Below, piece by piece: positions 13,308 through 43,829 of a stretch of DNA of 46,343 nt. Made by a program: the position numbers and the translations under genes. The notes under the pieces were generated by a model. The model ran no database searches. It was given only the letters and a program-made list of their open reading frames with translations, and was not told where the DNA came from. The stretch is from a virus, in the UHGV virus genome UHGV-0181016; one strand, 5' to 3'. Every line of letters starts with the position of its first letter. Positions within the stretch are counted from its first letter, which is position 1.

Positions 13308-13730
13308 ATGAAAAGGTACTACATTGAGGCAGTTGGGCCTGATGGTAAAAAGGTGTATGCCAGCGGTAGATGTGGTTTTCTGCATGATTTTACCTATGCG
13401 AAGTTTTTCAAAACAATAGAGGAGGCTGAGAGGTATATGGCGTGGCGGAAGCCGCATCTCCCGTGTGAAATAAAATGCAAGGAGCAAAGGGTAAAAAAAC
13501 GGGCAGCGTCTGTGCGGGAGCAAAAACCGACAATTGAGGGAGAGGCTCGCAACTTCGTCTACCGACTTGGTTTGGGTAAGGGAAAGCATTTTGTGTTTGA
13601 TGATTTTGCGTTGATAAAGAGTATTGAGCAGTTGAGAAGTGCGCTTTCCGTGGTTGGTAAGAAGCTGCAAAAAAAATTCAGTGTCAAGATGGTTGCGCGT
13701 AATACCGCTTATGTGGTGAGGGTTAAATGA
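13308..13730 (+). CDS. hypothetical basic protein, 140 aa
   Basis: GAGG lies 9 nt upstream of the ATG at 13308. Its position and basic composition make it a candidate DNA-binding or initiator-like protein. Confidence 0.4.
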   Translation: MKRYYIEAVGPDGKKVYASGRCGFLHDFTYAKFFKTIEEAERYMAWRKPHLPCEIKCKEQRVKKRAASVREQKPTIEGEARNFVYRLGLGKGKHFVFDDFALIKSIEQLRSALSVVGKKLQKKFSVKMVARNTAYVVRVK

Positions 13731-16060
13731 TGATTGGTTATGAAGATTACCGCAAATGTGGCTTCCCTATTATTGGAATCCATGCGATGGATATCGACCG
13801 CAATTGCACATGCGGTGATCCAGAGTGCAATGCTGCCGGTAAGCATCCGGTCATGAGTAACTGGCAGCTTGGAGTTATATGGGCTGATGACCAGATTGAA
13901 AATATGGCTGAATATGGTCAATTGCAGTCATTCGGCGTCCTTGTGAATGGTTATCTGGTCGTTGATATTGACCCACGCAACGGAGGCAATGATGGGTATG
14001 AGTCTCTTTGTGATGCCTTAGACGTAGAACTCGCTGATGAGGCTGGTTTTACAGTTAAGACTGGTGGTGGTGGTCGCCACATCTATTACAAACTTCCTGA
14101 AGGAATAAAGCTTCGCTCTCATGACAGAAGGTTTAAGGGTATTGACTTTAAATCATCTGGTTTTGTTGTTGGATGCGGTTCATTCCATAAGTCAGGTAAC
14201 TTTTATGAAGCTGAGCATGGCTCCCCTTCAGAGATAACTGAATGTCCATCTGAACTTATTGAGCTTTTGTTGCGCCCTGAGAGAACGGAAGACGAGGTTT
14301 TCACGCTTGATAGTAAAAATTACAGCATTGCCGAAATGGAGGATATGCTCAAATACATCAAAGATGGTGATGAGTATGACCCATGGCTTCATGTAGGCAT
14401 GGCTATCCACGAAGCTACAGAAGGCAATGGTTTTGAGCTTTGGGATAGGTGGTCATCGCAGTTCAGCAAGTACAGAGCTGAAGAGATGGATGCAAAATGG
14501 CATTCCTTTGGAAAGGACGGTGTTAGCGAAAAGATAACCGAAGCAACTCTGGTTTATCTCGCGCAAGAGGGAGGGTGGGTAAGGCAAGTAACTTTTGAGG
14601 CTACGCCGGAGGAAATTGAGAAACTTGAGTCTTTCGAGCGAGAGATGGCAATGGGTGTTGGTGAATGCCCTGTAGAGTACAAAAGTGTTGATGTCCGTTA
14701 TCCGCCTGGATTTGTTGGTCGCCTTACGGCGTGGATTAATAAGAACTGTGCAGAGAAGCGAGAGAATATTGCAGCACTTGCCGCATTGCATGCCGCATCC
14801 ATGATTTGCGGAGCGTCATCTGATATTTACCTTACAAATAGGAAGGCTTTACCAAACCTTTTTGCTGTTGGTATCGCTGGTTCAGGTTCAGGTAAGGGTG
14901 ATGTCCTTGCTGCGCTACAAAAGATAATTGATTGCTCAGGATTGAGTAAGACTGTCGCCGGTAAGATACGTTCAGAGCGTGCGATATATGAAGGTCTTTG
15001 CACTAACCAGATGTTTAATATCATCATGGATGAGATTGGGATAAAACTTGGCAGTGTTGTTGGTCAGAAAGTAAGCGAGTACAACATGGCAACCGCTGGT
15101 GCGATCATGGAGGCTTACACGTCAGAAGTTCTTTATTGTGACCAGCGGGTTACTGAGGATTTCATTAAGTCTTTCGAAAAGAGAAAGGCTATGCTGTTGA
15201 TGGCTATTGAGGAAAATGAGATACAGGCAGACCCAGTTGACATTAAGTGTCAGTTTGATGATGTGATAAACAGAATTGACGGAGCTATAAGGAATCCATT
15301 TTTTTCAATCTTTGGTGTGTCTACTGATGATCAGTTTAAGCGACTTATCACTGAAGAAAACATTAAGTCAGGTCTTATGGGTCGTGCAATGATTATGCAG
15401 GAGTTGCAGGAGATTGCTGACGAAAACGAAAACGTCAACTACTGCGATCTGCCAATGGATATGCAACTAACCATAAAAACAATAATAAATGGCGGAACTG
15501 CTGGGCACAAAAACTGGACAGACTCAATAATCAGTCAAAAAGAAAGACGGATTATAAAAGCTACGCCTGAAGTTTCTCAGCTCGCTAAGGAGTTCTTCTC
15601 ATGGATTAAAACCGTTGCAAGAAAGCATGTAGAAAACGGCACTGGTTATCACCCATTGATAAACAGATGCGCTGTGAAGGTGGCAAAGATTGCTGGAATT
15701 CTCGCGTGCGATACTGGCGTCATAACCATGGAGCACTTGAGATATGCGGTAGCATTAACAATTAAATCAACAAGCGATCTGATGATGCGTGCTGACAGTA
15801 TCGCCGGAGCGAAGTCTAAAGCTATGGAAGAACGAATTGAAGGTATTTTCTCCATGGTTAAAGAATATGTGAAGCGTGGAATGACTAAAACAGCAATGGT
15901 TAGAGGGGTGGCAAAAGAAGGTGGTTATAAACGCGCTGATGTCGAGAGGTGCGTAGAGAAGTTGTTATCAGATGGTATTATTTGCATTGATGAAAATGCA
16001 AAAAGAACATCTCACAACGTAATAATTTACAAATTAACAAATGATGAGGTTGAGATATGA
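13727..16060 (+). CDS. bifunctional primase-polymerase (PrimPol N-domain) fused to a D5/DUF3987-like P-loop NTPase, a primase-helicase
   Basis: The N-terminus carries the PrimPol hhhDhD-type motif LVVDIDPRNGG and a Zn-binding CTCGDPEC. The middle carries Walker A GIAGSGSGKG. The size is 777 aa. Confidence 0.75.
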   Translation: MMIGYEDYRKCGFPIIGIHAMDIDRNCTCGDPECNAAGKHPVMSNWQLGVIWADDQIENMAEYGQLQSFGVLVNGYLVVDIDPRNGGNDGYESLCDALDVELADEAGFTVKTGGGGRHIYYKLPEGIKLRSHDRRFKGIDFKSSGFVVGCGSFHKSGNFYEAEHGSPSEITECPSELIELLLRPERTEDEVFTLDSKNYSIAEMEDMLKYIKDGDEYDPWLHVGMAIHEATEGNGFELWDRWSSQFSKYRAEEMDAKWHSFGKDGVSEKITEATLVYLAQEGGWVRQVTFEATPEEIEKLESFEREMAMGVGECPVEYKSVDVRYPPGFVGRLTAWINKNCAEKRENIAALAALHAASMICGASSDIYLTNRKALPNLFAVGIAGSGSGKGDVLAALQKIIDCSGLSKTVAGKIRSERAIYEGLCTNQMFNIIMDEIGIKLGSVVGQKVSEYNMATAGAIMEAYTSEVLYCDQRVTEDFIKSFEKRKAMLLMAIEENEIQADPVDIKCQFDDVINRIDGAIRNPFFSIFGVSTDDQFKRLITEENIKSGLMGRAMIMQELQEIADENENVNYCDLPMDMQLTIKTIINGGTAGHKNWTDSIISQKERRIIKATPEVSQLAKEFFSWIKTVARKHVENGTGYHPLINRCAVKVAKIAGILACDTGVITMEHLRYAVALTIKSTSDLMMRADSIAGAKSKAMEERIEGIFSMVKEYVKRGMTKTAMVRGVAKEGGYKRADVERCVEKLLSDGIICIDENAKRTSHNVIIYKLTNDEVEI

Positions 16061-16479
16061 TCAATTACAAGTATCTGGTGATGAGGGGTTTGTATGACTA
16101 TTTTGAGTCAGAAAATCCTGAGCGCGCACATGATAACGCAATATCCATGATGACAGGGAAACACCTGATGGAAGTTTACTACTGGAAAATGCCTGTATTC
16201 CGATGCAATATGGGTATCTGCATTGATGATGACGTACTGTTTTGTCGAATACAATATGAAAACAATGTAGGCATAGTGACAGCATCGTACAGGGATGTCG
16301 CAAGGAAATCAGGAAACTGGCATCCAAGCGAAGTATTTGCTGGTGACGCACTATTTAATTTCTGCAAGGCGTTTGGTGTTTTGTATGAGGATGTAAGCAA
16401 AGAGTATAGCGGAAGGCGTGAGAAAGATAGCTTGAGTTCCAAAGGTGTGACTAACTACAAGGATAAAACCCATGGCTAA
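16057..16479 (+). CDS. hypothetical protein, 140 aa
   Basis: ORF with an ATGA overlap to the primase gene. Confidence 0.45.
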   Translation: MINYKYLVMRGLYDYFESENPERAHDNAISMMTGKHLMEVYYWKMPVFRCNMGICIDDDVLFCRIQYENNVGIVTASYRDVARKSGNWHPSEVFAGDALFNFCKAFGVLYEDVSKEYSGRREKDSLSSKGVTNYKDKTHG

Positions 16480-16753
16480 CCTTCAACTTGCCGTCAAAGG
16501 TGAATACTTCGATGCCATGATTATCGGGGAGAAAACGGAAGAGTATCGCCTTGCTAATGACTACTGGAAAAAGCGCCTCGTTAACCGCGAGTATGACCGC
16601 CTGATTATCACAAAGGGATATCCGAAGTGCGACGACTTCAGTCGCAGAATTGATGTTCCGTATGACGGATATGAAATCAAGACAATCACACATCCCCACT
16701 TCGGCGATAAACCGGTAAAGGTGTTCGCGATAAAGGTGAATATCAAAGCATAA
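16472..16753 (+). CDS. hypothetical protein, 93 aa, possibly ASCH-like
   Basis: ORF. Family unclear. Confidence 0.4.
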   Translation: MANLQLAVKGEYFDAMIIGEKTEEYRLANDYWKKRLVNREYDRLIITKGYPKCDDFSRRIDVPYDGYEIKTITHPHFGDKPVKVFAIKVNIKA

Positions 16754-16756
16754 CAA

Positions 16757-16785
16757 AAAGCCCGCAACCGCGGGCTTTATTATTT
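16757..16785. terminator. bidirectional terminator
   Basis: Hairpin GCCCGC-aacc-GCGGGC is followed by TTTATTATTT on the plus strand and TTTTTGTT on the minus strand. Confidence 0.65.
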
Positions 16786-17022
16786 AACAATCCATTTTGT
16801 GACAGCTGGCCTTAAATCTTCCTTTCTGAAAACACCACCAGTAAGCGACTCGGCATCAATTGCTGCTGTAGCACTAATTCTTCCTCTTGACACCCACTGA
16901 TTGACAGCCTGTTTTGACACACCTAGAAACCTTGCCAGTTGAGACTGACCTCCAACATAATCAATCAGTTCTGACAGCTTCGTCTGCTCCATTTCTCTTA
17001 TCTGTTCTGCGATGCTTTTCAT
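16780..17022 (-). CDS. Cro/CI-type HTH (XRE-family) regulator, divergent from the recombination operon
   Basis: QSQLARFLGVSKQAVNQWVSRGRIS is a canonical HTH. The start at M15 is inferred. Confidence 0.55.
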   Translation of the reverse strand: MKSIAEQIREMEQTKLSELIDYVGGQSQLARFLGVSKQAVNQWVSRGRISATAAIDAESLTGGVFRKEDLRPAVTKWIVK

Positions 17023-17101
17023 GTGTTTACCTCTGCTATCTGTATGCAGCAATAATGAACTCAAAAAAAATTTTCGTCAAGCTATTGCGTTTACCATCAT
17101 G

Positions 17102-17137
17102 TTGACGTATCTTTAAGTCACACCAGCGATATGCTGA
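17102..17137 (+). promoter_or_regulatory. putative promoter or operator for the Sak4 operon
   Basis: TTGACG is present but the -10 is weak. It is flanked by the inverted repeat TCGTCAA-N24-TTGACG. Confidence 0.3.
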
Positions 17138-17156
17138 GTTAAATCGAGAGGACACT

Positions 17157-17999
17157 ATGAGCTTATCAATGATTCAAAAACCAAAGCCAGCAGCACCAAT
17201 CATAACATTGGTTGGTACTCCGGGTGTAGGCAAGACAACTCTTGCGGCGCTATTCCCAAACCCAGTGTTTATTCAGGCTGAAGAGATCACTGGTGTTTTT
17301 GATGACTGGGATGATGAAAAGAAACCAGATTCATTTCCTGTACTGAAGCGAGCTGATGCTAAACGCAAAACAAGCACAAAGGATGATTTGCTGTCACAGC
17401 TACGCGCATTAATTACTGAAGAGCATAATTATAAAACTCTGGTAATTGACTCAATAACAAGCCTGCATTCAATGTTTGAGCATGAGGTTTGTGAAAATTA
17501 CGAAGTTGATAACGTTGGTTCTGCAGCTGGTGGTTACAACAAAGGGTATATCGTTGTTTCTGAAATGCACGCCGAAATAATAAATGCATGCAAGTATCTT
17601 CGCAAAGAAAAAGGGATGAGCATCATTTATCTTGCACACGCAGGTGTTAAAAAGATGAAGAATCGCCCTGATGCTGATGAATACACTGTTTACACACTTG
17701 ACATGCATGATGCTTCAGTTTCTGGTTATGTGAATCTTAGTGATGCTGTTATTTACATCAGGAATGAGGAGTTTGTGAAAGGTACTGAGACTGATAAAAA
17801 AGGTCAGGTCACCAAGTTTGGTAAGGTAGTTCAGACTGGTCAGCGAGTTCTTATCACATCTGGTGACGGTAGGGTTGGGTATGTTAATGCAAAAAACAGA
17901 TACAACCTTGAACCTGAAATTCCTTTTGAAAAAGGTGAGAACCCCCTTTTGAGTGAGATTAAATATTATGCATCTCTACGAGATAACCAAACAGCTTAA
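17157..17999 (+). CDS. Sak4-like RecA-fold ATPase, a single-strand annealing or recombination mediator
   Basis: Walker A is GTPGVGKTT. The size is about 280 aa. Gp157 and SSB follow, forming the Sak4 / Gp157 / SSB synteny. Confidence 0.7.
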   Translation: MSLSMIQKPKPAAPIITLVGTPGVGKTTLAALFPNPVFIQAEEITGVFDDWDDEKKPDSFPVLKRADAKRKTSTKDDLLSQLRALITEEHNYKTLVIDSITSLHSMFEHEVCENYEVDNVGSAAGGYNKGYIVVSEMHAEIINACKYLRKEKGMSIIYLAHAGVKKMKNRPDADEYTVYTLDMHDASVSGYVNLSDAVIYIRNEEFVKGTETDKKGQVTKFGKVVQTGQRVLITSGDGRVGYVNAKNRYNLEPEIPFEKGENPLLSEIKYYASLRDNQTA

Positions 18000-18447
18000 T
18001 GAGCTGCTGGCGCTGGATGATATTCCACGGGAGCAGATTGAAGATACCATCAATCTTATTGAAGAGGAGTTTGAAGGAAAGGCTGAAATGGTTGCTGCTT
18101 ACATTCGTGAGCTTGAGGCTGATGAAGCAGGACTTAAATCAGAGATTGACCGTCTTTCTGAGCGTAAGCGAGTTTTAGTTGCGAAGATTGATAACCTTAA
18201 AGATTATCTTCGTCAAAACATGATGGAGTCAGGAAAGACAAATATCAAAGGTAAGTTGTTCAGTATTACTCTTGGAAAACCATCACCAGTTCTTGATGTG
18301 TTTGTCCCTGTTGAGCAGCTTCCTGAGCAGTACCGCGTTGTGAAAGTGTCGGCAGATAACGCAGCAATTAAAAATGCGATTAAAGCCGGGATTGAAATTA
18401 AGGGTTGTGCCATTACTGATGGCAAACCAAAACTGATCATCAAATAA
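17968..18447 (+). CDS. Siphovirus Gp157-family protein
   Basis: Coiled-coil-rich protein of about 160 aa placed between Sak4 and SSB. Confidence 0.5.
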   Translation: MHLYEITKQLNELLALDDIPREQIEDTINLIEEEFEGKAEMVAAYIRELEADEAGLKSEIDRLSERKRVLVAKIDNLKDYLRQNMMESGKTNIKGKLFSITLGKPSPVLDVFVPVEQLPEQYRVVKVSADNAAIKNAIKAGIEIKGCAITDGKPKLIIK

Positions 18448-18464
18448 ATCGAGAGGACACAAAA

Positions 18465-18986
18465 ATGGGTTTCTGGAATCTTTCTGACGGTAAAGCTGTT
18501 GAATCTAAATCTGAATTTGAACTGGGTGGTGGTTTCGAAGTAATTCCTGATGGTAGCCGTGTTCTTGCTGCCGTTGAAGAATGTAAAGACGATCAGTGGG
18601 AAGGTGAGAGATTCTTCAATCTTAAGTGGCGAATTCTTGAGGGCGAGTATAAAAATCGCATTATCTTCCAGAAACTGAAAGTATTTAGCTCAAAAGAAAA
18701 GCAGCGAGACAATGCTATCACTATGCTTGCAGCAATTGACGCAAACGCTGGTGGAAAGCTGATGGCATCAGGAAAAGAGCCTACTGATTTTGCTATTGCC
18801 AGTGCGCTTGCAAATCGCCCGATGATTATTCTTCTGCGCGTTTGGGAGTCTGAGGATAAGCAAAAAACTGGTAACTATGTGGCTGGCGTTTTCAGTCGTC
18901 AACAGACAAAAGCAGCGCCTGCTCCTAAGCAATCAGCGCCGTCTAACGAGCCGCCGATTGACTTCGACTCTGACGTGCCATTTTGA
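18465..18986 (+). CDS. ssb: single-stranded DNA-binding protein
   Basis: The acidic C-terminal tail SNEPPIDFDSDVPF is the SSB-Ct motif. It is preceded by a Q/A/P-rich linker. The RBS context is TCGAGAGGACAC. Confidence 0.75.
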   Translation: MGFWNLSDGKAVESKSEFELGGGFEVIPDGSRVLAAVEECKDDQWEGERFFNLKWRILEGEYKNRIIFQKLKVFSSKEKQRDNAITMLAAIDANAGGKLMASGKEPTDFAIASALANRPMIILLRVWESEDKQKTGNYVAGVFSRQQTKAAPAPKQSAPSNEPPIDFDSDVPF

Positions 18987-19002
18987 TTTAGATTGGAATG
19001 AC

Positions 19003-19028
19003 AGGGCCATTCGTGGCCCTTTTTTATT
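19003..19028 (+). terminator. intra-operon terminator or attenuator
   Basis: Hairpin AGGGCCA-ttcg-TGGCCCT is followed by TTTTTTATT. Confidence 0.55.
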
Positions 19029-19040
19029 CGAGAGGACACT

Positions 19041-20909
19041 ATGAAAGTACAGCTTAGAACATACCAACAAGAAGCCGTTAATTCTGTTATAGGTCATATT
19101 CGTTCAAGCGTTTCATCGTGCATGATCATCTTGCCTACAGGTTCTGGTAAAAGCGTTGTTGTTGCATCAATAGCCGATTGGGTTTTTAAAAATACTGGCA
19201 AGCGTGTTCTATGTGTTGCCCCAACAAGCGAGTTAGTTGTGCAAAACAGGCAGCGTTATCTTTCTCTAACCGGAGAACCAGCCAGCATGTTCAGTGCGAA
19301 GGCCGGACCAAAGAACCTGCGTCATCCTGTTGTTTTTGGCTCACCAGTTACAATCAAGAACTCAATAGAGATGTTTGGTGATAAGTATGGTGCTGTCATT
19401 ATTGATGAGTGCGATGGAATAACGCCAACCATTAAATTTATTATTAATGAAATGAAGCGTCGCAATCCAAAACTGCGTGTTATTGGAATGACCGCTACGC
19501 CTTATCGCCTTGGAACTGGATACATCTACAAAGAGCACTATCTCGATGGTCCTACAGATGAAGAAACTGCCATTGACCCATATTATGATAAGGTTGTTTA
19601 TGAGCTTGAGGCTAAATTCCTCATTGAAAACGGATACCTTACGCCGCCAGTTACAGAGCCTGTTGTTGATGAATATGATACGTCTTGTCTTGAAAAGGAT
19701 AAGTTGGGTCGGTACACAACAGCTTCAGTTGAAAAAGCGATGGTTGGCAAGGGAAGGAAAACATCACGCATTGTTGAAGATATTATCCGTCGCTCTGTTA
19801 ATCGGCGCGGAACGATGATTTTTGCCAGCACCAAAAAACACGCTATGGAGATAATGGAGTCACTTCCTCCCGGTTCTTATAGTTATGTTTTTGGTGATAT
19901 GCCAACAGCAGATCGCAACAAGGCAATATCAGACTTCAAGGCACAAAAAGTTAAATACATCGTTAACCAGAATATCCTTACTGTGGGGGTGGATGTTCCT
20001 CATTGTGATCATATAGCAGTAATGAGAGCCACAGAATCACCAAGACTGTACCAGCAAATAATTGGCAGAGGGACGCGTCTTTATGAAGGAAAGGAAGATT
20101 TTCTTGTCAGCGATTACGCAGGCAACATTCAGCGTCACTTTTCTGAGACTGGTGACTTGTTCACTCCAGAAATAAAAGCAACAAGGAAAAAACCATCAGT
20201 GCCAATGGATGTTAAATGCCCGTTATGTGGCTTTATCAATGAATTTGGCGTGCGCCCAAACCCGGAAAATTTGGAGGTTGACAAAGAAGGTTACTGGCTT
20301 GATTTGGCTGGTGACAGAGTAATGATTGATATTTTTGATAAATCAGGTGAAAAGATTGGAAGCAAGCCTATGCCTGCTCATTTTGGTAGGCGGTGTAAAA
20401 ACTACGTTATGTACGGGCCGTTAAGGGAAATGCACAGGTGTACTTATAAGTGGTCGGTGAAAGAGTGTCCTGATTGTGGATTTGAAAATGATATAGCGGC
20501 AAGAAACTGCACATCATGCGGCGCTGAAATCATTGATCCAAACCAAAAGCTAAAGGAAGAAGCTGACAGGCTTGATTCTTCTCCTTATGCAACCAAGCAA
20601 TCAAGCGTAACCATGATGAACATCATGAAGCATTATGTTTCAAGTGGCGAGGATTTGGTGCACGTAAAATTTGCTATTGACCAGAAGCCATTTTTTGTTA
20701 GCAAGTTCTATAATCCAAACTCTGAGAAGGAATGGATGAAGAAGGAGTGGGAAGAGTTTTGCGGGAAGTGCTTTGGTGAATATGACATGTCAATTGATGA
20801 TGCAATAGCAAAAAGAGATGAGGCTATCGCGCCATCAGTGATTATGTTCAGAAGAGACAAGGGTAGTAAATATTTCAACGTTAAAGGCATGTATTGGGGG
20901 GTACTATGA
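19041..20909 (+). CDS. SF2 DEAD/DEAH-box helicase with C-terminal zinc ribbons
   Basis: Walker A is ILPTGSGKS and the DExD box is IIDECD. Motifs III to VI are present, and several CxxC pairs sit in the C-terminal third. Confidence 0.75.
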   Translation: MKVQLRTYQQEAVNSVIGHIRSSVSSCMIILPTGSGKSVVVASIADWVFKNTGKRVLCVAPTSELVVQNRQRYLSLTGEPASMFSAKAGPKNLRHPVVFGSPVTIKNSIEMFGDKYGAVIIDECDGITPTIKFIINEMKRRNPKLRVIGMTATPYRLGTGYIYKEHYLDGPTDEETAIDPYYDKVVYELEAKFLIENGYLTPPVTEPVVDEYDTSCLEKDKLGRYTTASVEKAMVGKGRKTSRIVEDIIRRSVNRRGTMIFASTKKHAMEIMESLPPGSYSYVFGDMPTADRNKAISDFKAQKVKYIVNQNILTVGVDVPHCDHIAVMRATESPRLYQQIIGRGTRLYEGKEDFLVSDYAGNIQRHFSETGDLFTPEIKATRKKPSVPMDVKCPLCGFINEFGVRPNPENLEVDKEGYWLDLAGDRVMIDIFDKSGEKIGSKPMPAHFGRRCKNYVMYGPLREMHRCTYKWSVKECPDCGFENDIAARNCTSCGAEIIDPNQKLKEEADRLDSSPYATKQSSVTMMNIMKHYVSSGEDLVHVKFAIDQKPFFVSKFYNPNSEKEWMKKEWEEFCGKCFGEYDMSIDDAIAKRDEAIAPSVIMFRRDKGSKYFNVKGMYWGVL

Positions 20910-21361
20910 TTTTTCCAGAAGGCGTTAAGGTATATGGCGATTTAGATTACAGAAACAAAAAGTGCCCGTCAGAAGATGCTGAGCTGGAGACTTTTGTTAA
21001 TCAGATAAGGGAGCTATATCCTGACTTTGCAAGAGTTATGATTCATGTACCAAATGAAGGAAAGCGTAAAGGGTATGAAGTTGAAAACCTGAAGAAAAAA
21101 GGCGCGCTAAACTTCGGGGCGTCAGACATCATCATCATAGGAAAGCAATCATTCGTTATGGAGATGAAAAGAATGGATCATACTTTATCAAAATGGCAGC
21201 CCGGTCAAATGGCATACCTAAAGGCGGCAAAAGAATTAGGTTCCTTCGCGTGTGTATGCCTTGGTTGGGAAGCTGCAATGATGGCATTTAACGACTGGAG
21301 AGCAATGAATTACCCAAACTATAAGAAACCATCAGAGCCATTGATATTTGATGGTTTTTAG
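20894..21361 (+). CDS. VRR-NUC domain nuclease
   Basis: The PD-(D/E)xK-type VRR-NUC signature reads MIHVPNEGKRKG...GASDIIIIGK...EMKR. Confidence 0.7.
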   Translation: MGGTMIFPEGVKVYGDLDYRNKKCPSEDAELETFVNQIRELYPDFARVMIHVPNEGKRKGYEVENLKKKGALNFGASDIIIIGKQSFVMEMKRMDHTLSKWQPGQMAYLKAAKELGSFACVCLGWEAAMMAFNDWRAMNYPNYKKPSEPLIFDGF

Positions 21362-21517: not shown

Positions 21518-23929
21518 CACCGTGTACCCTGTGACTATAAAGCGCTGCTTTCCGGTACTGTTAGTGCGTACTACAATCTCTGTATTACTAACTACACATT
21601 CCACCGTAAATTCTGCTGTAGCACCCAAATTCAGAGTATACGTACCATTACCTGTACCAGTGCTGTAACTGCGTGCTGTACTGCCAGAATCAGTGAATGC
21701 AATAGTAGTTGCGCTACTGCTCTTGCTGATTGTGAAGCGCGTCAGAAGTGTGCCAGACGCCCCGTTGCTAATCTGGAAGTACCGCGTACCCTCAGCTATA
21801 TTCTGCACAGTGGGTAGGCCCACACGGAAGAGAACTTGTGTCTGAGCAGAGATACCGTCGTAACCTACGCGGTTGATGCCTGCAGCATTCAAGAGATGAC
21901 CGCAATCAAGCTCAGTACCCGATAAGATGTTGCCAGTGCAAGTCCCTGCATCATACATACCAGGGTTGGATGATGGGTTAGTCAGACGGCAGCGAGTCTT
22001 CGAGTTAAACTTATTATCAGCTACGATAAGGTTCATATTCGAGTATTGCGTGTTATTGCTTGCATAGTCGGTGAGCACGGTAAGGTCGCCGAACAAGCCA
22101 CGGTTGCGGGATATATCCAGAGTCCCAGTGAAGCCACCACCCCCAGCTTGGGAACCATTATTCAACTGCACAAACCCTTGAACCAAGGCATCAGGCAGGT
22201 CAAAGGTATTGTCTGTAACCGTAATCTGCTGACGGAAGTTGTATGGGTATACCGAAACGCGTACAAAGTTAGTGCTGGTATTAGCTGGGGACGAGAAGTG
22301 GCAACCAGAAACAACCACGTTAGTTAGTGGCGTACCATTTGCGACATAATTAAGCGTGATTAGTTCAATATCACAGTTATGGATATGCACATATCTATTT
22401 CCATACACCAACGGGCCAACCTGAGGAGAGCCTACCCAGTCACGAGTTTCTACGAACAGGAACGTACCCCTGGAGTTGGCAAGCGTAATATCCGGGAACA
22501 GGCCCTGCATTACACTGACGTAATTACGGCGATAGAACCAACGCTTGTTAGTGCTACTGTACTGGTGTGCTTCTTTGATCTTGTGTGGAACCATGAGGCA
22601 TGAGTTCCACCCCATGCAGTCCTCAATAGTGATATCACTCTCTTGAACAAGGTGTGCTTTGTTGTAGATGTCATACATTTCCAGGGTAGCAGAGGAACGG
22701 CATTTAACACCCTTTTGGTATCCCTTGTAATGACTGAGTGACCAGCATGTGACAAGAGCCATAGCAGTATATCCATTAGACCCATCTGCCCAAAAAGAAT
22801 CATCATTAATAATTGAGTAATCATGAATAGACACATTCTTCATAGCCGAACGCATTTGTGCTTCATAGAGATTTTCGTTAACAGCACCTATTTGTATAAA
22901 TGTGCCTGCCATGTTGTGGACTGTGAAATTTGAAATTTCTATTGTCTCACATGGGAAATCACGTGTAAGAAGCAGGAAATCGTAAGGACTCTCTGCATGG
23001 AAGTGCGTTAGTGAAATGCTGTCACAGCCATAGGTTACTTCTTCAGGGTTTACGTTTAGTGGGCCAATGGCGGTAAATAACTCAACTCGGCCAGTTGTAG
23101 TGAACTTGGTAGCTCTTACAGATTTTATCTTGGTTGCCACACTATCTTTCACACCAACGAACCGTGGTCTGATGGAAGTATCCTCACTACCACGGAGAAT
23201 GAAATCTTCACCAGTAAAGTATCCATCGGTAGCTAAGTAGAAGTTATACCCACTACCTGGATACACCTCACCATTACCCCATAGATTAAGAAACGTCACT
23301 GTGAGGTTCATATCATCAGGGAGATAAACAGCGCTTCCCATTAAGTTAAGATTGACCCCACCAAATTTAGATTCCATAGCTTGTAGGGCGACCTTGTTAT
23401 TGGCTGCAGAGAGGGGGTCACCATAGGAACCACCAAAAGCTGATATGTCGCCATTTTTCCATGATAGGTATTCGTAAGCAGATGCTATTTGAAACTTATG
23501 TCCGCTATGATTAATGTGTGATGTCCCTGTGCTTGATGCCAACTGAGTCCTTAACGCAGCATCACCAACACTAACCCACGCACCCAATCTAACCTCACCA
23601 GTGCTGTCTGGAGTTGAACCGGCTGGCACTACTTTGGGAAACTCACCATCCCAGCGGTAATATTCTCCGTTAGCTTCATAACGCAAAACCTGATTAGGCA
23701 GCGTCAGTGTTGCGCCATCTTCAAAACTATCCATCGTGATGTAACCATAATTACGGATAGCCTCTTCTGCGGTGTACTGAAATCCTGCGATAGTAAATCG
23801 GCGCACGCCGAAGCGGTCGGTATAGTAGTGGTTGTCGCCACTTACAACCTCGTCAATCTTCCCGGCATTAAACTTAAGGTCGCGCGGGTCTTCTGACGGG
23901 ATTGGCTTATTGGTTGGTACGGTAGCCAT
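21515..23929 (-). CDS. tailspike or tail fibre with a beta-helix (pectate-lyase-like) depolymerase domain
   Basis: 804 aa, the last gene of the tail module. Long beta-rich repeats with many NxT/G motifs look like a right-handed beta-helix. Confidence 0.65.
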   Translation of the reverse strand: MATVPTNKPIPSEDPRDLKFNAGKIDEVVSGDNHYYTDRFGVRRFTIAGFQYTAEEAIRNYGYITMDSFEDGATLTLPNQVLRYEANGEYYRWDGEFPKVVPAGSTPDSTGEVRLGAWVSVGDAALRTQLASSTGTSHINHSGHKFQIASAYEYLSWKNGDISAFGGSYGDPLSAANNKVALQAMESKFGGVNLNLMGSAVYLPDDMNLTVTFLNLWGNGEVYPGSGYNFYLATDGYFTGEDFILRGSEDTSIRPRFVGVKDSVATKIKSVRATKFTTTGRVELFTAIGPLNVNPEEVTYGCDSISLTHFHAESPYDFLLLTRDFPCETIEISNFTVHNMAGTFIQIGAVNENLYEAQMRSAMKNVSIHDYSIINDDSFWADGSNGYTAMALVTCWSLSHYKGYQKGVKCRSSATLEMYDIYNKAHLVQESDITIEDCMGWNSCLMVPHKIKEAHQYSSTNKRWFYRRNYVSVMQGLFPDITLANSRGTFLFVETRDWVGSPQVGPLVYGNRYVHIHNCDIELITLNYVANGTPLTNVVVSGCHFSSPANTSTNFVRVSVYPYNFRQQITVTDNTFDLPDALVQGFVQLNNGSQAGGGGFTGTLDISRNRGLFGDLTVLTDYASNNTQYSNMNLIVADNKFNSKTRCRLTNPSSNPGMYDAGTCTGNILSGTELDCGHLLNAAGINRVGYDGISAQTQVLFRVGLPTVQNIAEGTRYFQISNGASGTLLTRFTISKSSSATTIAFTDSGSTARSYSTGTGNGTYTLNLGATAEFTVECVVSNTEIVVRTNSTGKQRFIVTGYTV

Positions 23930-23968: not shown

Positions 23969-27767
<3,799 letters not shown>

Positions 27768-36208: not shown

Positions 36209-36237
36209 TTGACGTAGATTGGTGGCGCGTTTATAGT
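36209..36237 (+). promoter_or_regulatory. family promoter, TTGACG-N17-TATAGT, driving the ParB / Dam / clamp island
   Basis: The sequence reads cctgTTGACGTAGATTGgtggcgcgttTATAGT. Confidence 0.55.
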
Positions 36238-36278
36238 TAGTGACGTAGAAACAACAATAAATGTTAGAGGTAATGAAG

Positions 36279-36755
36279 ATGAGTGAATCATGGTCAGTTC
36301 CATTTCCAGATGCTAAAACAGAGTTCAACGGCATGCCTGTTTACTGGAGGTATTTTGAAACAGTCGAAAGTGACGGTATCAAAATAATTTCTCAGCAGTT
36401 CATTGCTTTTCACCAGACGGCTTACTATGCATGGATAGCTCCAGCCCACTGGTTCAAAATATACAATCATGAACGTGATATTCCTCGCTGGCTTGCGGAG
36501 TGGAAAGATAAGAAAAATAGATATGCAATCAAGAAAATTGCTAAGTCAGCAGAACGATCTTATGCGTTTAAATCTCAGCAACTAGCGCTTGAAAGCTTGT
36601 TGCGTAGAAAGAAATATCACTTGATGAGATTAAAACAGGATATAGCCGTAATCACAACTGTTGTTGATGAATTGAAAAAAATAGACATATCAAAACCTGT
36701 TATTAGCTACAACCTCGGTCACAACTCGGAAACAGAAAATTGGATTTTTGATTAA
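36279..36755 (+). CDS. hypothetical protein, 158 aa, Trp/Tyr-rich with a basic C-terminus
   Basis: GAGGT lies 8 nt upstream of the ATG at 36279. Confidence 0.45.
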   Translation: MSESWSVPFPDAKTEFNGMPVYWRYFETVESDGIKIISQQFIAFHQTAYYAWIAPAHWFKIYNHERDIPRWLAEWKDKKNRYAIKKIAKSAERSYAFKSQQLALESLLRRKKYHLMRLKQDIAVITTVVDELKKIDISKPVISYNLGHNSETENWIFD

Positions 36756-36766
36756 TAGGATAAACA

Positions 36767-37576
36767 ATGAAAACCCTAAGCAAAATCTATTCAGACAAAG
36801 AAACGCGTAACGGCATCGTTGTTAACAAAACCTATCTCGTTCCAGTGGAGCAAATCTATCTGGAGCCGGGATATAACATCCGTGAAGCAGATGAACAACA
36901 CGTTGAATATTTCGCTCAGTGCTGGGAATCAGGTCAGCCATTACCAGCATTAACAGTTATCCCAGACGAGAAGGGAATCCGCATTCTTGATGGTCAGCAC
37001 CGCTATCTCGGCGCATTGCGTGCCATTGAGCGTGGTGCGCCAATCGTTCGCATTGAGTGTAAGGATTTCACTGGCGACGAGGCTGATAAAATTGCCTTCA
37101 TGGTGTCATCAAGTCAGGGTAAGCAGCTTGACCCGTTTGAACGTGCAAAGGCTTACACGCGACTGAAAGGCTTTGGCTGGACGAATGAAGAAATCGCAAA
37201 AAAGGTAGGTCGCTCAGTATCTGACGTGCAAATGCATCTCTCGCTGGGTGACGTGCCAGATGAAGTAAAAGCGCGCATCAGTGCAGGACAAATCAGCTAT
37301 GCAAATGCCGTAGCAGTAACGCGTGAGCATGGAGATGATGCGGTTAAAGTTATCGATGAGGCAGTAGAGGAAGCAAAGGCGCAAGGTAAGGATAAGGTCA
37401 CAGCAAAGGTGCTGAAGTCGAAAAAGATTAAGCCAGTTGACCGCCTGATTGAGTTATTGAAGCCAGCGGACCATGTGATTCTACCTGCCGGTCATGTGGT
37501 GGCAGAGGATGAGGAGTTTATCCAGATTCCTGTTGCTGATATTCACGAGGTTATAGCAATTCTGGAGAAGATGTGA
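36767..37576 (+). CDS. ParB-like protein (ParB/Srx N-terminal domain plus HTH)
   Basis: ILDGQHRYLGAL is the ParB-box GxxR-type motif. An HTH WTNEEIAKKVGRSVSDV follows. Confidence 0.75.
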   Translation: MKTLSKIYSDKETRNGIVVNKTYLVPVEQIYLEPGYNIREADEQHVEYFAQCWESGQPLPALTVIPDEKGIRILDGQHRYLGALRAIERGAPIVRIECKDFTGDEADKIAFMVSSSQGKQLDPFERAKAYTRLKGFGWTNEEIAKKVGRSVSDVQMHLSLGDVPDEVKARISAGQISYANAVAVTREHGDDAVKVIDEAVEEAKAQGKDKVTAKVLKSKKIKPVDRLIELLKPADHVILPAGHVVAEDEEFIQIPVADIHEVIAILEKM

Positions 37577-38304
37577 TGATCATAAATGAAGATGTGAAAC
37601 TAATTCATGGTGATTGCCTTGAAGTTATGAAGTCTATTCCCGATGGTAGCATTGATTTGATTTTGTGTGACCTTCCCTATGGCACCACGGCCTGCAAATG
37701 GGACAGCATTATTCCGCTCGATAAGCTGTGGGGCGAGTATCTGCGAGTTGCGAAGTGCAATGCGGCGATCTTGCTCACTGCGCAGGCACCTTTTGACAAG
37801 GTGTTATGGGCCTCGATGCCGCGCCTGTTCCGCTACGAGTGGATCTGGGAGAAGACGCACCCGACAGGGCATCTGAACGCAAAGAAAATGCCGATGAAGG
37901 CGCATGAAAATGTGCTGGTTTTCTACCGCAAGCTGCCGACGTACAACCCGAAGATGACCATCGGGCATAAACGGAAGACGGCTACCAAGAGGGAGGATAT
38001 GACGCCGGTGTACGGCAAACAGTGTTTTTCACCCCTGGAGTATGATTCTACCGATCGGTATCCCAGGAGCGTCCAGCTGTTTGCGAGCGACAAGCAGCGC
38101 TGCGCTCTTCACCCTACGCAAAAGCCGGTCGCGTTGATGGAATACATGGTTGAAACCTATTCCAATGATGGCGACCTAGTTCTGGATAACTGCATGGGCA
38201 GCGGCACTACAGGCGTGGCCTGCATGAACACAGGGCGCAGGTTTATAGGAATCGAAAAAGATGAAGAGTATTTTGAAATAGCAAAAAAAAGGATTTTAGG
38301 GTGA
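37573..38304 (+). CDS. dam: DNA N6-adenine methyltransferase (Dam-like)
   Basis: The catalytic DPPY motif is ILCDLPYGT. SAM-binding motifs IGIEKDEEYF and MGSGTTGVA lie at the C-terminus. An ATGATG overlap joins it to the ParB gene. Confidence 0.8.
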   Translation: MMIINEDVKLIHGDCLEVMKSIPDGSIDLILCDLPYGTTACKWDSIIPLDKLWGEYLRVAKCNAAILLTAQAPFDKVLWASMPRLFRYEWIWEKTHPTGHLNAKKMPMKAHENVLVFYRKLPTYNPKMTIGHKRKTATKREDMTPVYGKQCFSPLEYDSTDRYPRSVQLFASDKQRCALHPTQKPVALMEYMVETYSNDGDLVLDNCMGSGTTGVACMNTGRRFIGIEKDEEYFEIAKKRILG

Positions 38305-38474
38305 GCGCTGAGCAATTTATCGAAAAGCAACTTCGTGCCAAGTTGCCTGACATTAACCAGATGGCAATTGATGCGGCGATTCAGTATTACAAGCGCAATC
38401 AGAGCGCAAAGAAGGGTGGCATTTTCGAGGAATGCCTGAAAGTTGCAAAACAGCACATGATTAAGGTGAAGTGA
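38301..38474 (+). CDS. hypothetical protein, 57 aa, GTG start
   Basis: ORF coupled by a TGATG overlap to the downstream gene. Confidence 0.35.
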   Translation: MSAEQFIEKQLRAKLPDINQMAIDAAIQYYKRNQSAKKGGIFEECLKVAKQHMIKVK

Positions 38475-39013
38475 TGAAACTAAAAATCAGCAAATTATTA
38501 CTTGAGTCAGCGTTAATATTTCAGGCTCGAAATGATGTGCGATATTACCTGAACGGCATCTGCTTCATGCCAGATGGTCGCATTGCATCAACTGATGGTC
38601 GTCGCGCATTCATTGGAGGCAGCCATGACAATAAGCTGACAGAAAACGTGATTATCAAGATTGGCAAGTCACCAACAAAACGCTATGACTACGCCATCAT
38701 TGATACTAAGTCGAAAATTGCAACGTATCATGATGAAGCTGGCGTGATGGTTGGCGCTGGTATCTGCGAAGAGATTGATGGTAGATTCCCTGATATTGAC
38801 AGCGCGATACCAAAGGAAACTAAAGCAGTAGAGGAAATTGGCTTCAATGCTGGCTATCTTGTGGATGTCGAGAAAGCTGCGAAGCTATTTAATCCTAAGT
38901 TCTGTGGTGTTAAATTTGAGCTGAATGGAAATACAAATGCCGCAGTTTGCTGCCTGAAGTCGCCATCTGGAGAGACTGCGAAGATTGTTGTTATGCCGAT
39001 GAGGATTGATTGA
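38474..39013 (+). CDS. truncated beta-sliding-clamp (DnaN) homologue of about 180 aa. It matches DnaN domain II plus the C-terminal partner-binding tail.
   Basis: By-eye alignment to E. coli DnaN, recalled from memory. [28 protein letters not shown] matches [46 protein letters not shown] matches [26 protein letters not shown] matches [21 protein letters not shown] matches AYVVMPMRL. Confidence 0.65.
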   Translation: [179 protein letters not shown]

Positions 39014-39294
39014 TGAGTGCAGAGATGAAGCCATGCAGGCTTTGCGGAGTTAAGCAAAGCGGCGTCGATGAACATAATAATGAATACGAAAAGTTGGTAA
39101 GTCTTATTCTTCGCTCCGGAGATGAAAGGGAGTTACTTGAATTAATTGATATAATGAGGAGTAAGATAATAACATCTGTAACAACATCGGTTGGTAGCAG
39201 CAAGCTGGCATATGAAGACCGCGAACTTTATCATGTTCAAGTCATGTATGACGCAATATCTTTACTGCGTGAAAAGCTAATTTCCAGACAGTAA
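39010..39294 (+). CDS. hypothetical protein, 94 aa, with an N-terminal CxxC
   Basis: ORF, the last gene of the island before the terminator. Confidence 0.4.
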   Translation: MMSAEMKPCRLCGVKQSGVDEHNNEYEKLVSLILRSGDERELLELIDIMRSKIITSVTTSVGSSKLAYEDRELYHVQVMYDAISLLREKLISRQ

Positions 39295-39297
39295 ACC

Positions 39298-39326
39298 AAA
39301 GCCCCTTCACGGGGCTTTTATTTTTA
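39298..39326 (+). terminator. terminator with the family hairpin AAAGCCCCttcacGGGGCTTT
   Basis: Hairpin followed by TATTTTT. Confidence 0.6.
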
Positions 39327-39521
39327 CTCTGCTTTCTTTTTCTTTGTCGTCTTTTCTTGCGGAGTTGCGACTTCGAAAGACTTTTCCAGTTCTGGCATGA
39401 TGCGCAGCTTTGGCAGCAGATGCTCAGCTGGCTCGGTAATCACCTCGCCAAGCTGCAATTCACGAATCTTGCCTTTCTCTTTAACAAAGATTCCGCGAGC
39501 GATAACTTCGTATTTAGCCAT
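39324..39521 (-). CDS. hypothetical protein of 65 aa following the capsid gene
   Basis: ORF. Confidence 0.4.
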   Translation of the reverse strand: MAKYEVIARGIFVKEKGKIRELQLGEVITEPAEHLLPKLRIMPELEKSFEVATPQEKTTKKKKAE

Positions 39522-39540
39522 TATTCACCTCAAGTTCATA

Positions 39541-39564
39541 AAGGGGCTTTCGCCCCTTTTTTTA
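39541..39564 (+). terminator. second, plus-oriented terminator in tandem
   Basis: Hairpin GGGGCtttcGCCCC is followed by TTTTTTTATT. It sits just downstream of the capsid gene stop. Confidence 0.55.
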
Positions 39565-42431: not shown

Positions 42432-43829
42432 ATGCCGAAGAAGATGACTATTGATGAGCTCAAAGAAAAGATTCGTAGCGTTCATGGCGAGACGTATGAG
42501 TATGACTTTCATACCTTCCATGGCTGTCACTCACCAATGAAAATAGTATGCAAAAAGCATGGGGAATTCTGGCAAAAGCCATCCAAACACCTTCATGGTC
42601 AGGGGTGTGCAAAGTGCCAACGGGGCGTTATTTCTGTCGATGACTTCAAGTCAATGGCCTCCGCTATTCATGACTGGAAGTATGACTATAGCAAGGTTTT
42701 TTTTGAAGCGTTTTCAAGGGCAAAGATAACAATCGGATGCCCGATTCATGGGTGGTTTGAGCAATTGGCCTACATTCATCTGAAGAGGGGTAATGGATGC
42801 CCAAGGTGTGGGGATGAGAGATCGAGAAAAGCCAAGTTAAAAAAGTTCAGCAATTTTGTTGATGATGCGAAATACGTCCATGGTGATAAGTATGAGTATT
42901 CCCCGAATGGTTTTACTGGTTCTCGAGGCAAGATTAATATCTTATGTCCTACACATGGTGAGTTTACTCAAGGTGCCGCAAATCACCTGGCTGGTAATGG
43001 GTGTCCATCGTGCGCAAGAGTGATGTCAAATATAGAAGCCGATATCCTTGCATTTGTTAAGTCACTGGACCCACATGTGATCAGCAGGGATAGAACAACG
43101 ATAGCACCATATGAACTGGATATAGTCTCAAAAGCCAAATCATTAGCCATAGAGGTAAATGGCACATACTGGCACTCGGAGAAGGCCGGGAAAGATAGGC
43201 TGTATCACAAAATGAAAAGAGAGATGGTTGAAGCGTCAGGAATGAGATTGATAAGCATAAGAAGCGATATATGGAGAGATAAGCGCGAATTAGTAGAGGA
43301 AATAATAATTAATGCCATGGGGGCATCTGAGAGTAGGAAGGTTGACGCAAGAAAGTGCACCATTAAAGATGTATCACCATCTGAATCAAGGGCTTTTCTT
43401 GATAGATACCATGTTATGGGAGGAAGAAATGCCAGTAGGCACTTTGGTTTATTTTGTGGCGGTGAACTGGTATCCGTTATGTCATTTACAGTTAGGAAAG
43501 GTTCTGTTGAGTTGGTTAGATTCGCATCTAAATGCAATGTTCGTGGGGGGTTAACAAAGATGCTAAAACACTGCTCATCAGTTGTTGGTTTTGATGAGTG
43601 TTTCAGCTATGTAGACCTTGATTTGTTTACCGGCAAATCATACCTCTTAGCTGGCTTTAAAGCTGTAAGCACAAAACCCGGATTCGCGATTGTTAACGGA
43701 AACCATGTGGAATCAAGGCAAAAGTGGAACAAGGCGCCTAATGGCATGACTCAGAGCGAATGGTACGAATCTGAAGGTGTAAGCAGGATATGGGATAGCG
43801 GACAAATGAGAATAGAGTGGAGTAAATAG
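42432..43829 (+). CDS. free-standing homing endonuclease. It has three CxxHGxF...HLxGxGCPxC zinc-ribbon repeats plus a PD-(D/E)xK (Vsr/DUF559-like) nuclease.
   Basis: The repeats are CKKHGEFWQ...HLHGQGCAKC, CPIHGWFEQ...HLKRGNGCPRC and CPTHGEFTQ...HLAGNGCPSC. The nuclease motif is ELDIV...EVNGTYWH...K. It is encoded opposite the flanking structural genes. Confidence 0.6.
   Translation: MPKKMTIDELKEKIRSVHGETYEYDFHTFHGCHSPMKIVCKKHGEFWQKPSKHLHGQGCAKCQRGVISVDDFKSMASAIHDWKYDYSKVFFEAFSRAKITIGCPIHGWFEQLAYIHLKRGNGCPRCGDERSRKAKLKKFSNFVDDAKYVHGDKYEYSPNGFTGSRGKINILCPTHGEFTQGAANHLAGNGCPSCARVMSNIEADILAFVKSLDPHVISRDRTTIAPYELDIVSKAKSLAIEVNGTYWHSEKAGKDRLYHKMKREMVEASGMRLISIRSDIWRDKRELVEEIIINAMGASESRKVDARKCTIKDVSPSESRAFLDRYHVMGGRNASRHFGLFCGGELVSVMSFTVRKGSVELVRFASKCNVRGGLTKMLKHCSSVVGFDECFSYVDLDLFTGKSYLLAGFKAVSTKPGFAIVNGNHVESRQKWNKAPNGMTQSEWYESEGVSRIWDSGQMRIEWSK

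Follow-up and report, generated by a model that had tools for sequence, protein, structure and literature searches.

A phage DnaN homologue, probably ring-less, that keeps the residues of the clamp-binding pocket

The textbook picture of a sliding clamp is a closed ring. Herpesviruses encode processivity factors that have a clamp fold but no closed ring: UL42 of herpes simplex virus 1 (HSV-1) is a monomer, UL44 of human cytomegalovirus (HCMV) a C-shaped dimer, and PF-8 of Kaposi's sarcoma-associated herpesvirus (KSHV) and BMRF1 of Epstein-Barr virus (EBV) belong to the same class. In the bacterial sliding clamp DnaN, 18 residues form the pocket that receives the clamp-binding motif of partner proteins (PMC11139829, a review). 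Subsite I comprises R152, L155, T172, G174, H175, R176, L177, P242, R246, V247, V360 and M362, and subsite II comprises H175, N320, Y323, V344, M362, P363, M364 and R365 (PMC11139829). The hydrophobic dimer interface pairs Ile78 and Phe106 (domain I) with Ile272 and Leu273 (domain III), and all DnaN helices line the DNA channel (PMC11139829). Here we analyse a gene for a truncated DnaN homologue, the mini-clamp, in the UHGV virus genome UHGV-0181016, the whole of which (46,343 nucleotides) is referred to as the window. The window represents a Skatevirus-like small siphovirus with a nucleotide identity of 88-92% to Salmonella phage NX263 and the E. coli phages C1, S192 and Bas81; phages Bas77-81 are grouped with Skatevirus (PMC11990801).

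The mini-clamp coding sequence (38474..39013, plus strand) starts with the ATG at 38474, with an alternative GTG at 38471, ends with the TGA at 39011-39013 and encodes 179 amino acids. The ATG overlaps the stop codon of an upstream open reading frame (ORF) of 57 amino acids as TGATG, and orthologues start with MKLKIS. All four sequence blocks quoted by a first-pass annotation are found in the translation and can be aligned with the DnaN sequence of E. coli K-12, which was taken from NC_000913.3. The homology to DnaN claimed there is confirmed by three types of search. BLASTP aligns residues 7-153 with DnaN 136-288 (expectation value E=4e-11) and, as a second segment, residues 121-178 with DnaN 316-366 (E=3e-6). 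A phmmer search of PDB chains returns beta clamps exclusively, with a best E of 2.9e-11, and hhalign, run with an alignment of 138 family members against DnaN, gives a probability of 99.5% (E=7.7e-23). The hhalign alignment is collinear, placing residues 8-178 on DnaN 137-366 with one large gap at DnaN ~253-311, and the identity to DnaN is 28-34% across the aligned parts. The curated family cut-offs are missed by PF02768 (16.7 bits vs 27) and by TIGR00663 (27.9 bits vs 137.65), and the Pfam scan gives no match of the mini-clamp to PF00712 or PF02767. Because these cut-offs are not reached, we classify the protein from its sequence as a divergent DnaN homologue and not as a DnaN equivalog. The novelty implied for this homology was overstated, as the exact protein is present in NCBI as DAE42966.1 ('MAG TPA: DNA polymerase III, beta subunit') on 4 contigs of up to 46,462 bp. 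Homology is thus already known; what is new is the ring-less quarter-clamp architecture with its pocket residues kept, and the implication of this architecture.

The mini-clamp corresponds to DnaN ~131-252 joined to DnaN ~312-366. It lacks domain I, the first half of domain III and, within domain II, the second helix. The first two of these losses had been recognized before and are reproduced by hhalign; the boundaries given at the time were essentially correct, with ~255-320 now refined to ~253-311, while the loss of the second helix of domain II had been overlooked. An AlphaFold2 model based on the 138-sequence alignment reaches a predicted local distance difference test score (pLDDT) of 97.1 and a predicted template modelling score (pTM) of 0.91. 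A model built with just 12 close relatives was unusable (pLDDT 40), and the 138 diverse relatives were used instead. Foldseek searches of the PDB with the model return beta clamps for 50 of the 50 best listed matches, and the alignments extend over ~255 columns, which leaves a gap of ~75 residues at the position of the first half of domain III. The model shows the fold of clamp domains, i.e. beta-alpha-beta-beta-beta repeats with the helices inside and the sheets outside, and contains three beta-sheet units and two long helices, approximately a quarter of a clamp ring.

The domain II counterpart (E. coli ~131-237) comprises amino acids 1-101 (38474..38776; this and the following segments are on the plus strand), as delimited by the hhalign columns and the AlphaFold2 secondary structure. 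In the model it consists of a strand (2-6), a helix (7-16), the DVRYYLNG loop and strands at 29-31, 37-40, 44-48, 59-63, 73-77, 82-86 and 92-101. The DVRYYLNG loop (amino acids 21-28, 38534..38557) matches DnaN D150-G157, with R23 and L26 at the positions of the subsite I residues Arg152 and Leu155, and TDGRRAF (amino acids 40-46, 38591..38611) matches T172-A178, with T40, G42 and R43 in place of Thr172, Gly174 and His175. The second helix of domain II (DnaN ~198-212) is replaced by a short basic loop of nine residues, GKSPTKRYD (amino acids 64-72, 38663..38689), as seen in the model and in the hhalign gap. The inter-domain linker (amino acids 102-114, 38777..38815) corresponds to DnaN D238-K250; here P106, S110 and A111 occupy the positions of Pro242, Arg246 and Val247. 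The junction that follows (amino acids 115-120, 38816..38833) marks the site of the absent DnaN segment ~253-311, including Ile272 and Leu273, based on the hhalign and Foldseek gaps. The counterpart of the second half of domain III (DnaN 316-366 by BLASTP and hhalign) comprises amino acids 121-179 (38834..39010) and consists of a short strand, a helix (126-139), three strands and the MPMRID tail. Equivalent residues in this part are N125 (Asn320), Y128 (Tyr323), T154 (Val344) and V172 (Val360), and in the tail M174 (Met362), P175 (Pro363), M176 (Met364) and R177 (Arg365). The C-terminal MPMR element is kept in both the BLASTP and the hhalign alignment, as had been proposed.

A frameshifted full-length dnaN was considered and is rejected, since tblastn with DnaN and hmmsearch with the family profile over all six frames of the window give a meaningful score at the mini-clamp ORF alone. 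Domain I is encoded nowhere in the window by the same six-frame searches. A weak tblastn match of DnaN residues 134-283 (E=0.011, 24% identity) lies at 23348-23737 on the minus strand within a gene for an 804-amino-acid tailspike; it is probably a chance similarity of beta-rich sequence, and the family profile does not detect this region.

Twelve positions are conserved in at least 90% of the family, namely D21, R23, Y25, L26, G28, T40, G42, H43, P106, Y128, M174 and P175, which are equivalent to D150, R152, Y154, L155, G157, T172, G174, H175, P242, Y323, M362 and P363 of DnaN. Nine of the twelve are pocket residues (R152, L155, T172, G174, H175, P242, Y323, M362 and P363), an enrichment with a hypergeometric P of 2e-8. 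Conservation amounts to 95% for D21, 98% for R23, 95% for Y25, 93% for L26 and 91% for G28, and to 93% for histidine at position 43, 93% for Y128, 97% for M174, 91% for P175 and 85% for R177. The further pocket equivalents of N320, V247 and R365 are conserved in 64-85% of the members. Judged by these residues, both subsites of the pocket are present family-wide. Retention of the binding cleft is supported more strongly than originally claimed, as the equivalents of subsites I and II rank highest in conservation across the family.

The residues that close the ring show the opposite picture. Ile78, Phe106, Ile272 and Leu273 all map (4/4) to segments that are deleted in the mini-clamp in the hhalign alignment. 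Since domain I and DnaN 253-311, which hold the dimer-interface residues, are absent family-wide, the predicted architecture cannot form the canonical head-to-tail dimer ring. The idea that the protein acts as a dominant-negative subunit poisoning host beta dimers is not sustained for the same reason, because no canonical interface is left.

The charge of the protein differs as well. The median isoelectric point (pI) of the family is 8.26 (8.21 for the window protein), whereas DnaN has a pI of 5.25 and its equivalent fragment one of 6.06. Lysine or arginine residues are conserved at positions 11, 134 and 137 on the two helices of the channel side, and at positions 19, 69 and 142, which include nearby loops. 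Based on the geometry of DnaN these side chains may face DNA. The basic residue 19 is equivalent to DnaN His148, located in a loop that we take to contact DNA.

Homologues were found in 258 phage records, 255 of them with at least 80% query coverage, from phages of hosts including Salmonella, Escherichia, Klebsiella, Vibrio, Proteus and Burkholderia. When 1.84 billion cluster representatives were searched, 3801 matched with E<=1e-3, of which 443 reach E<=1e-10. Among the best 150 of the 3801, nearly all are 170-215 amino acids long and align end to end, and one is a full-length clamp (378 amino acids). Both deletions are shared: the segment 60-74, where the second helix is lost, is 15 residues long in 102 of 138 members, and the junction 113-123 at the domain III deletion measures 11-12 residues in 92 of 138. 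In BFVD, many viral proteins of 163-250 amino acids have template modelling (TM) scores of 0.8-0.9 to the mini-clamp model. The ratio of non-synonymous to synonymous substitution rates (dN/dS) between the mini-clamp and its Bas81 orthologue is 0.126. Since hundreds of relatives of 170-215 amino acids share both deletions and dN/dS is this low, the gene is under purifying selection and is not a relic; a non-functional remnant of a captured dnaN is ruled out by the same values and by the uniform length across hundreds of clusters.

The database labels of this family are misleading in two ways. The mini-clamp matches phrog_3007 with E=2.4e-61 (residues 1-178 align with positions 1-186 of the 190 in the profile), a family named 'RusA-like Holliday junction resolvase', and this label has been copied to RefSeq and pharokka annotations, e.g. 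NC_054651.1 and PQ850630.1. On the strength of the name and of this match the gene could be a RusA-like resolvase, or else a non-functional remnant of a captured dnaN, and we give this explanation next to no credence. RusA (PF05866) gives no match in the mini-clamp even at E<=10 and the matches listed by fold searches are clamps, so that a RusA-like identity is rejected, and decay is refuted by the clamp fold, the purifying selection and the uniform deletions. A true RusA gene is located ~1 kb upstream of the short clamp in contig L009, and such an adjacent gene is a possible source of the phrog_3007 label. Genome reports name proteins of this type 'DNA polymerase III beta subunit' or 'sliding clamp' and assign the function of a ring clamp to them (PMC9825357, PMC3483164, PMC9901506). 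We found no description of the truncated architecture and no functional test in the literature searched, which did not cover most subscription journals. PADLOC gives no defence or anti-defence match for the mini-clamp. Two names should be corrected in phage annotation pipelines: 'RusA-like Holliday junction resolvase', and also 'DNA polymerase III beta subunit', since it suggests a ring clamp.

We then compared the gene context of short clamps in different phages. In Serratia phage Eta the genes for a single-stranded DNA-binding protein (SSB), a ParB-like protein, the mini-clamp and a helicase form one operon adjoining a primase gene. Pantoea phage LIET2 has Sak4 followed further on by a helicase, VRR-NUC and then the mini-clamp, KMB41 has primase/helicase and methyltransferase genes and then the mini-clamp, and in Pseudoalteromonas phage C7 the mini-clamp is divergent from PrimPol. 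Replication or recombination genes (helicase, primase, SSB, Sak4, or a lambdoid nin-type region) are found near the short clamp in 6/8 sampled contexts. The context of the family is clearly biased to replication and recombination modules, which tends to favour a function in the replication or recombination of phage DNA. No partner gene is constant across the eight contexts.

In the window, the replication module spans 13727-21361. It encodes a PrimPol-D5 helicase (a PrimPol-PriCT-D5-like fusion, 13727-16060), Sak4 (17157-17999), a Gp157-family protein labelled Gam-like in PHROGs (17953-18447), a DUF669 SSB ending in PPIDFDSDVPF (18465-18986) and a superfamily 2 (SF2) helicase (19041-20909). 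Bas81 has a different module with primase and exonuclease VIII, showing that the region is mosaic. Profile scans detect no DNA polymerase of family A, B or C among the ORFs of the window, and no clamp loader was found among the window ORFs scanned. As its own replication set comes without a polymerase of these families, this phage must engage host replisome proteins. The acidic tip of the phage SSB resembles the C-terminus of E. coli SSB (DDDIPF), which recruits host replisome and repair proteins.

The mini-clamp itself is gene 5 of 6 in a co-oriented island with overlapping starts and stops (36261-39294, plus strand), which lies amid structural genes on the minus strand. ORF 1 (36261..36755, 164 amino acids) belongs to phrog_1636, with no function assigned. 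ORF 2 (36767..37576) encodes a ParB-like protein with HTH_ParB and KorB matches and a DGQHR box, ORF 3 (37573..38304) a DNA methyltransferase of the N6_N4_Mtase family PF01555, and ORF 4 (38301..38474) the 57-amino-acid protein of phrog_4439 whose stop overlaps the mini-clamp start. ORF 6 (39013..39294, ~93 amino acids) is without a family match and its ATG overlaps the mini-clamp stop. The island is closed by a two-way hairpin, a site that reads as terminator-like on both strands (39298..39318), and a sigma-70-like match to the promoter consensus (TTGACG-17-TATAGT, 10/12) is located upstream of ORF 1 at 36209..36237 on the plus strand. Such promoter-like matches are no commoner in the window than in shuffled sequence (5 vs 6.1). 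Thus, of the promoter-to-terminator island in which the mini-clamp had been placed fifth, the gene order, the overlaps and the hairpin hold, while the promoter-like site is a consensus match. The ParB-like neighbour is real as well and is found directly upstream of the mini-clamp also in Serratia phage Eta. The supposed Dam gene is actually the PF01555 methyltransferase; the Pfam scan shows no match to the Dam family (D12 class). In Bas81 a 58-amino-acid ORF takes the position of the 57-amino-acid ORF, and an unrelated ORF of 86 amino acids between it and the ParB-like gene replaces the methyltransferase, so that the pairing of methyltransferase and mini-clamp is not fixed. The interference with RIDA/SeqA initiation control suggested from the ParB-like and Dam neighbours finds no support in these observations.

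Two further features lie downstream. A second strong GC-rich hairpin, terminator-like and located at 39540-39559, flanks together with 39298-39318 a small minus-strand ORF (39324-39521) located between the island and the major capsid gene. Amid the minus-strand head genes, a plus-strand ORF of 465 amino acids (42432-43829) carries DUF723 and a weak restriction-endonuclease-like MTES_1575 domain and may be an insertion of a mobile or homing-type nuclease.

The conserved pocket suggests that the mini-clamp probably binds clamp-binding motifs. Going further, we tentatively favour a non-ring docking module that would act in phage replication by binding such motifs, likely those of host replisome proteins; we hold this reading as possible and not as established. 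The pocket would dock the clamp-binding motif (QLxLF-type) of a client protein, and the basic concave face of the mini-clamp would keep the client on phage DNA or at the phage replisome with no need of a clamp loader. The likeliest clients are host proteins of the replisome or of DNA repair, e.g. the alpha or epsilon subunit of DNA polymerase III (Pol III). A host client is proposed because scans of the phage proteins gave no convincing motif. If the docking role is correct, a large and conserved family that has given up the ring but not the partner pocket would demonstrate that this pocket has a use of its own, and it could account for the engagement of the host replisome by small siphoviruses that lack a DNA polymerase. 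With 179 amino acids and a probably monomeric state, the mini-clamp would also offer a natural minimal scaffold for studies of clamp-binding motifs and for their inhibition, an antibiotic target.

Several observations weigh against a docking role in replication. Searches with regular expressions through the phage replication proteins, the termini of all ORFs and the polymerase of Dhillonvirus turned up no convincing clamp-binding motif. Conservation of the pocket residues extends to all DnaN proteins and has in part structural reasons. In the window the mini-clamp lies ~17 kb from the replication module, in the island with the ParB-like and methyltransferase genes. The short clamp of contig L009 lies near NinB and RusA genes in a nin-like region of lambdoid type, and in the Escherichia phage 'rolling', a Dhillonvirus, Nmad5 and the mini-clamp form a pair (25381-26717) with Nmad5 directly upstream. 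Mutations that escape the Tmn defence system are located in Nmad5, according to a study that mentions no clamp gene (PMC11846954). The same Dhillonvirus encodes a family A polymerase (PolA), and Burkholderia phage AH2 also has a polymerase of family A (PMC3483164); a restriction of the family to polymerase-less phages is therefore rejected. Finally, the window allele has R43, S110 and A111 at pocket positions where DnaN has His175, Arg246 and Val247. This combination occurs in the window allele alone among 284 retrieved family proteins, and 15/15 nearest cluster representatives carry H, R and V/I at positions 43, 110 and 111. Arginine at position 43 and the deviations at 110 and 111 are peculiar to this allele. 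Each change is a single-nucleotide substitution (codon 38600-38602 for R43, codons 38801-38806 for S110-A111), and three of the ~10 differences from the nearest relative fall in the pocket. The three changes, equivalent to H175R, R246S and V247A, may reflect an altered client specificity or a weakened binding.

The same pocket could also serve as a decoy. A soluble module may titrate host clamp-binding proteins (delta, Pol III alpha, Hda, MutS/L and translesion polymerases) and thereby shut down or rewire host replication and repair. Conservation of the pocket together with the loss of all ring-forming elements fits this explanation, as does the location of the window gene in an accessory island outside the replication module, and a monomeric beta variant (I272A/L273A) binds delta ~50-fold tighter than the dimer (PMC11139829). 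We nevertheless consider a decoy unlikely. Blocking Pol III or the clamp loader would harm a phage without its own replicative polymerase, the majority of the sampled contexts are within replication or recombination operons, and a decoy would have no need of a basic DNA-facing surface. Moreover, subsite II, which is not used by delta (PMC11139829), is conserved as well as subsite I. A targeting adaptor would couple the ParB-like protein, the methyltransferase or an Nmad5-type enzyme to replicating DNA for the immediate modification of new phage DNA. ParB-like neighbours in the window, Bas81 and Eta, methyltransferase neighbours in the window, KMB41 (twice), LIET2, Vibrio phage 1.246.O and contig L009, and the Nmad5 gene directly upstream in Dhillonvirus are in line with such a function. 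However, methyltransferases are frequent in early regions of phages and none is a constant neighbour, Bas81 being without one. The regular-expression scan finds no clamp-binding motif in the methyltransferase, and the sole motif-like string of the ParB-like protein, QMHLSL, is located within the match to its helix-turn-helix (HTH) domain (amino acids 120-202) and is probably buried. An adaptor function is thus highly improbable. Kinship of the ParB-like protein with the Dhillonvirus Nmad5 was considered and none was found.

A ring of a new kind, acting as a clamp for Pol III or PrimPol on phage DNA, might be assembled from four copies or from a mixture with host beta. The domain arithmetic fits, as four times 1.5 domains make a six-domain ring, and the pocket and the basic residues on the channel side are kept. 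Both halves of the canonical interface are deleted, though, and a lone half-domain would require a non-native partner surface. In addition, the model has two long channel helices per three half-domains, which gives 8 rather than 12 per ring, no clamp loader was detected among the ORFs scanned, and no tandem or fused members are seen among the best 150 of the 3801 cluster representatives. We therefore judge a new ring to be improbable. A bacterial-virus counterpart of UL42 may be envisaged, in which a loader-independent, DNA-binding quarter-clamp captures host Pol III by its clamp-binding motif for a polymerase-less replisome of PrimPol-helicase, SSB and Sak4, or, in its radical version, closes a six-domain ring from four copies; we regard this extension of the docking role as speculative and rather improbable.

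How the mini-clamp compares with described systems can be summarized from its closest to its most distant relatives. With E. coli DnaN (PDB 2POL/1MMI; TIGR00663; PF00712, PF02767 and PF02768) it has in common the fold (domain II and the second half of domain III), the MPMR motif and the pocket residues, the full set of which is seen family-wide. While DnaN is an acidic protein of 366 amino acids with three tandem domains (~360-390 amino acids), the mini-clamp is basic and comprises 179 amino acids and 1.5 domains. Full-length phage beta clamps (phrog_947, 'DNA polymerase processivity factor') are DnaN homologues that share the label 'DNA polymerase III beta subunit' with it, an example being gp28 of Burkholderia phage KL1, a full-length clamp of 386 amino acids adjoining its polymerase. 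These clamps have three domains and are ring-competent, whereas the mini-clamp scores 3e-8 against phrog_947 compared to 2.4e-61 against phrog_3007, and the short family (170-215 amino acids) forms its own cluster apart from them among the best 150 of 3801 matches.

Phages are known to manipulate the clamp and its network of clamp-binding motifs, as shown by Gp168, gp8 and MuC, which provides a precedent for a decoy. N4 gp8 reportedly targets the delta subunit of the clamp loader. Twort Gp168 is seen on the clamp in PDB 7evp, and in late transcription Mu MuC makes use of the clamp (PMC12867686). While these phage proteins are ligands of the clamp or of delta and unrelated in fold to the mini-clamp, the latter is a fragment of the clamp itself that would present the pocket. 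The herpesvirus factors of the UL42/UL44 type offer a functional analogy, with an undetectable sequence relationship. They consist of two full domains and serve a virus-encoded polymerase, whereas the mini-clamp has 1.5 domains and a bacterial-type pocket, probably serves a host client and may bind DNA through its basic face.

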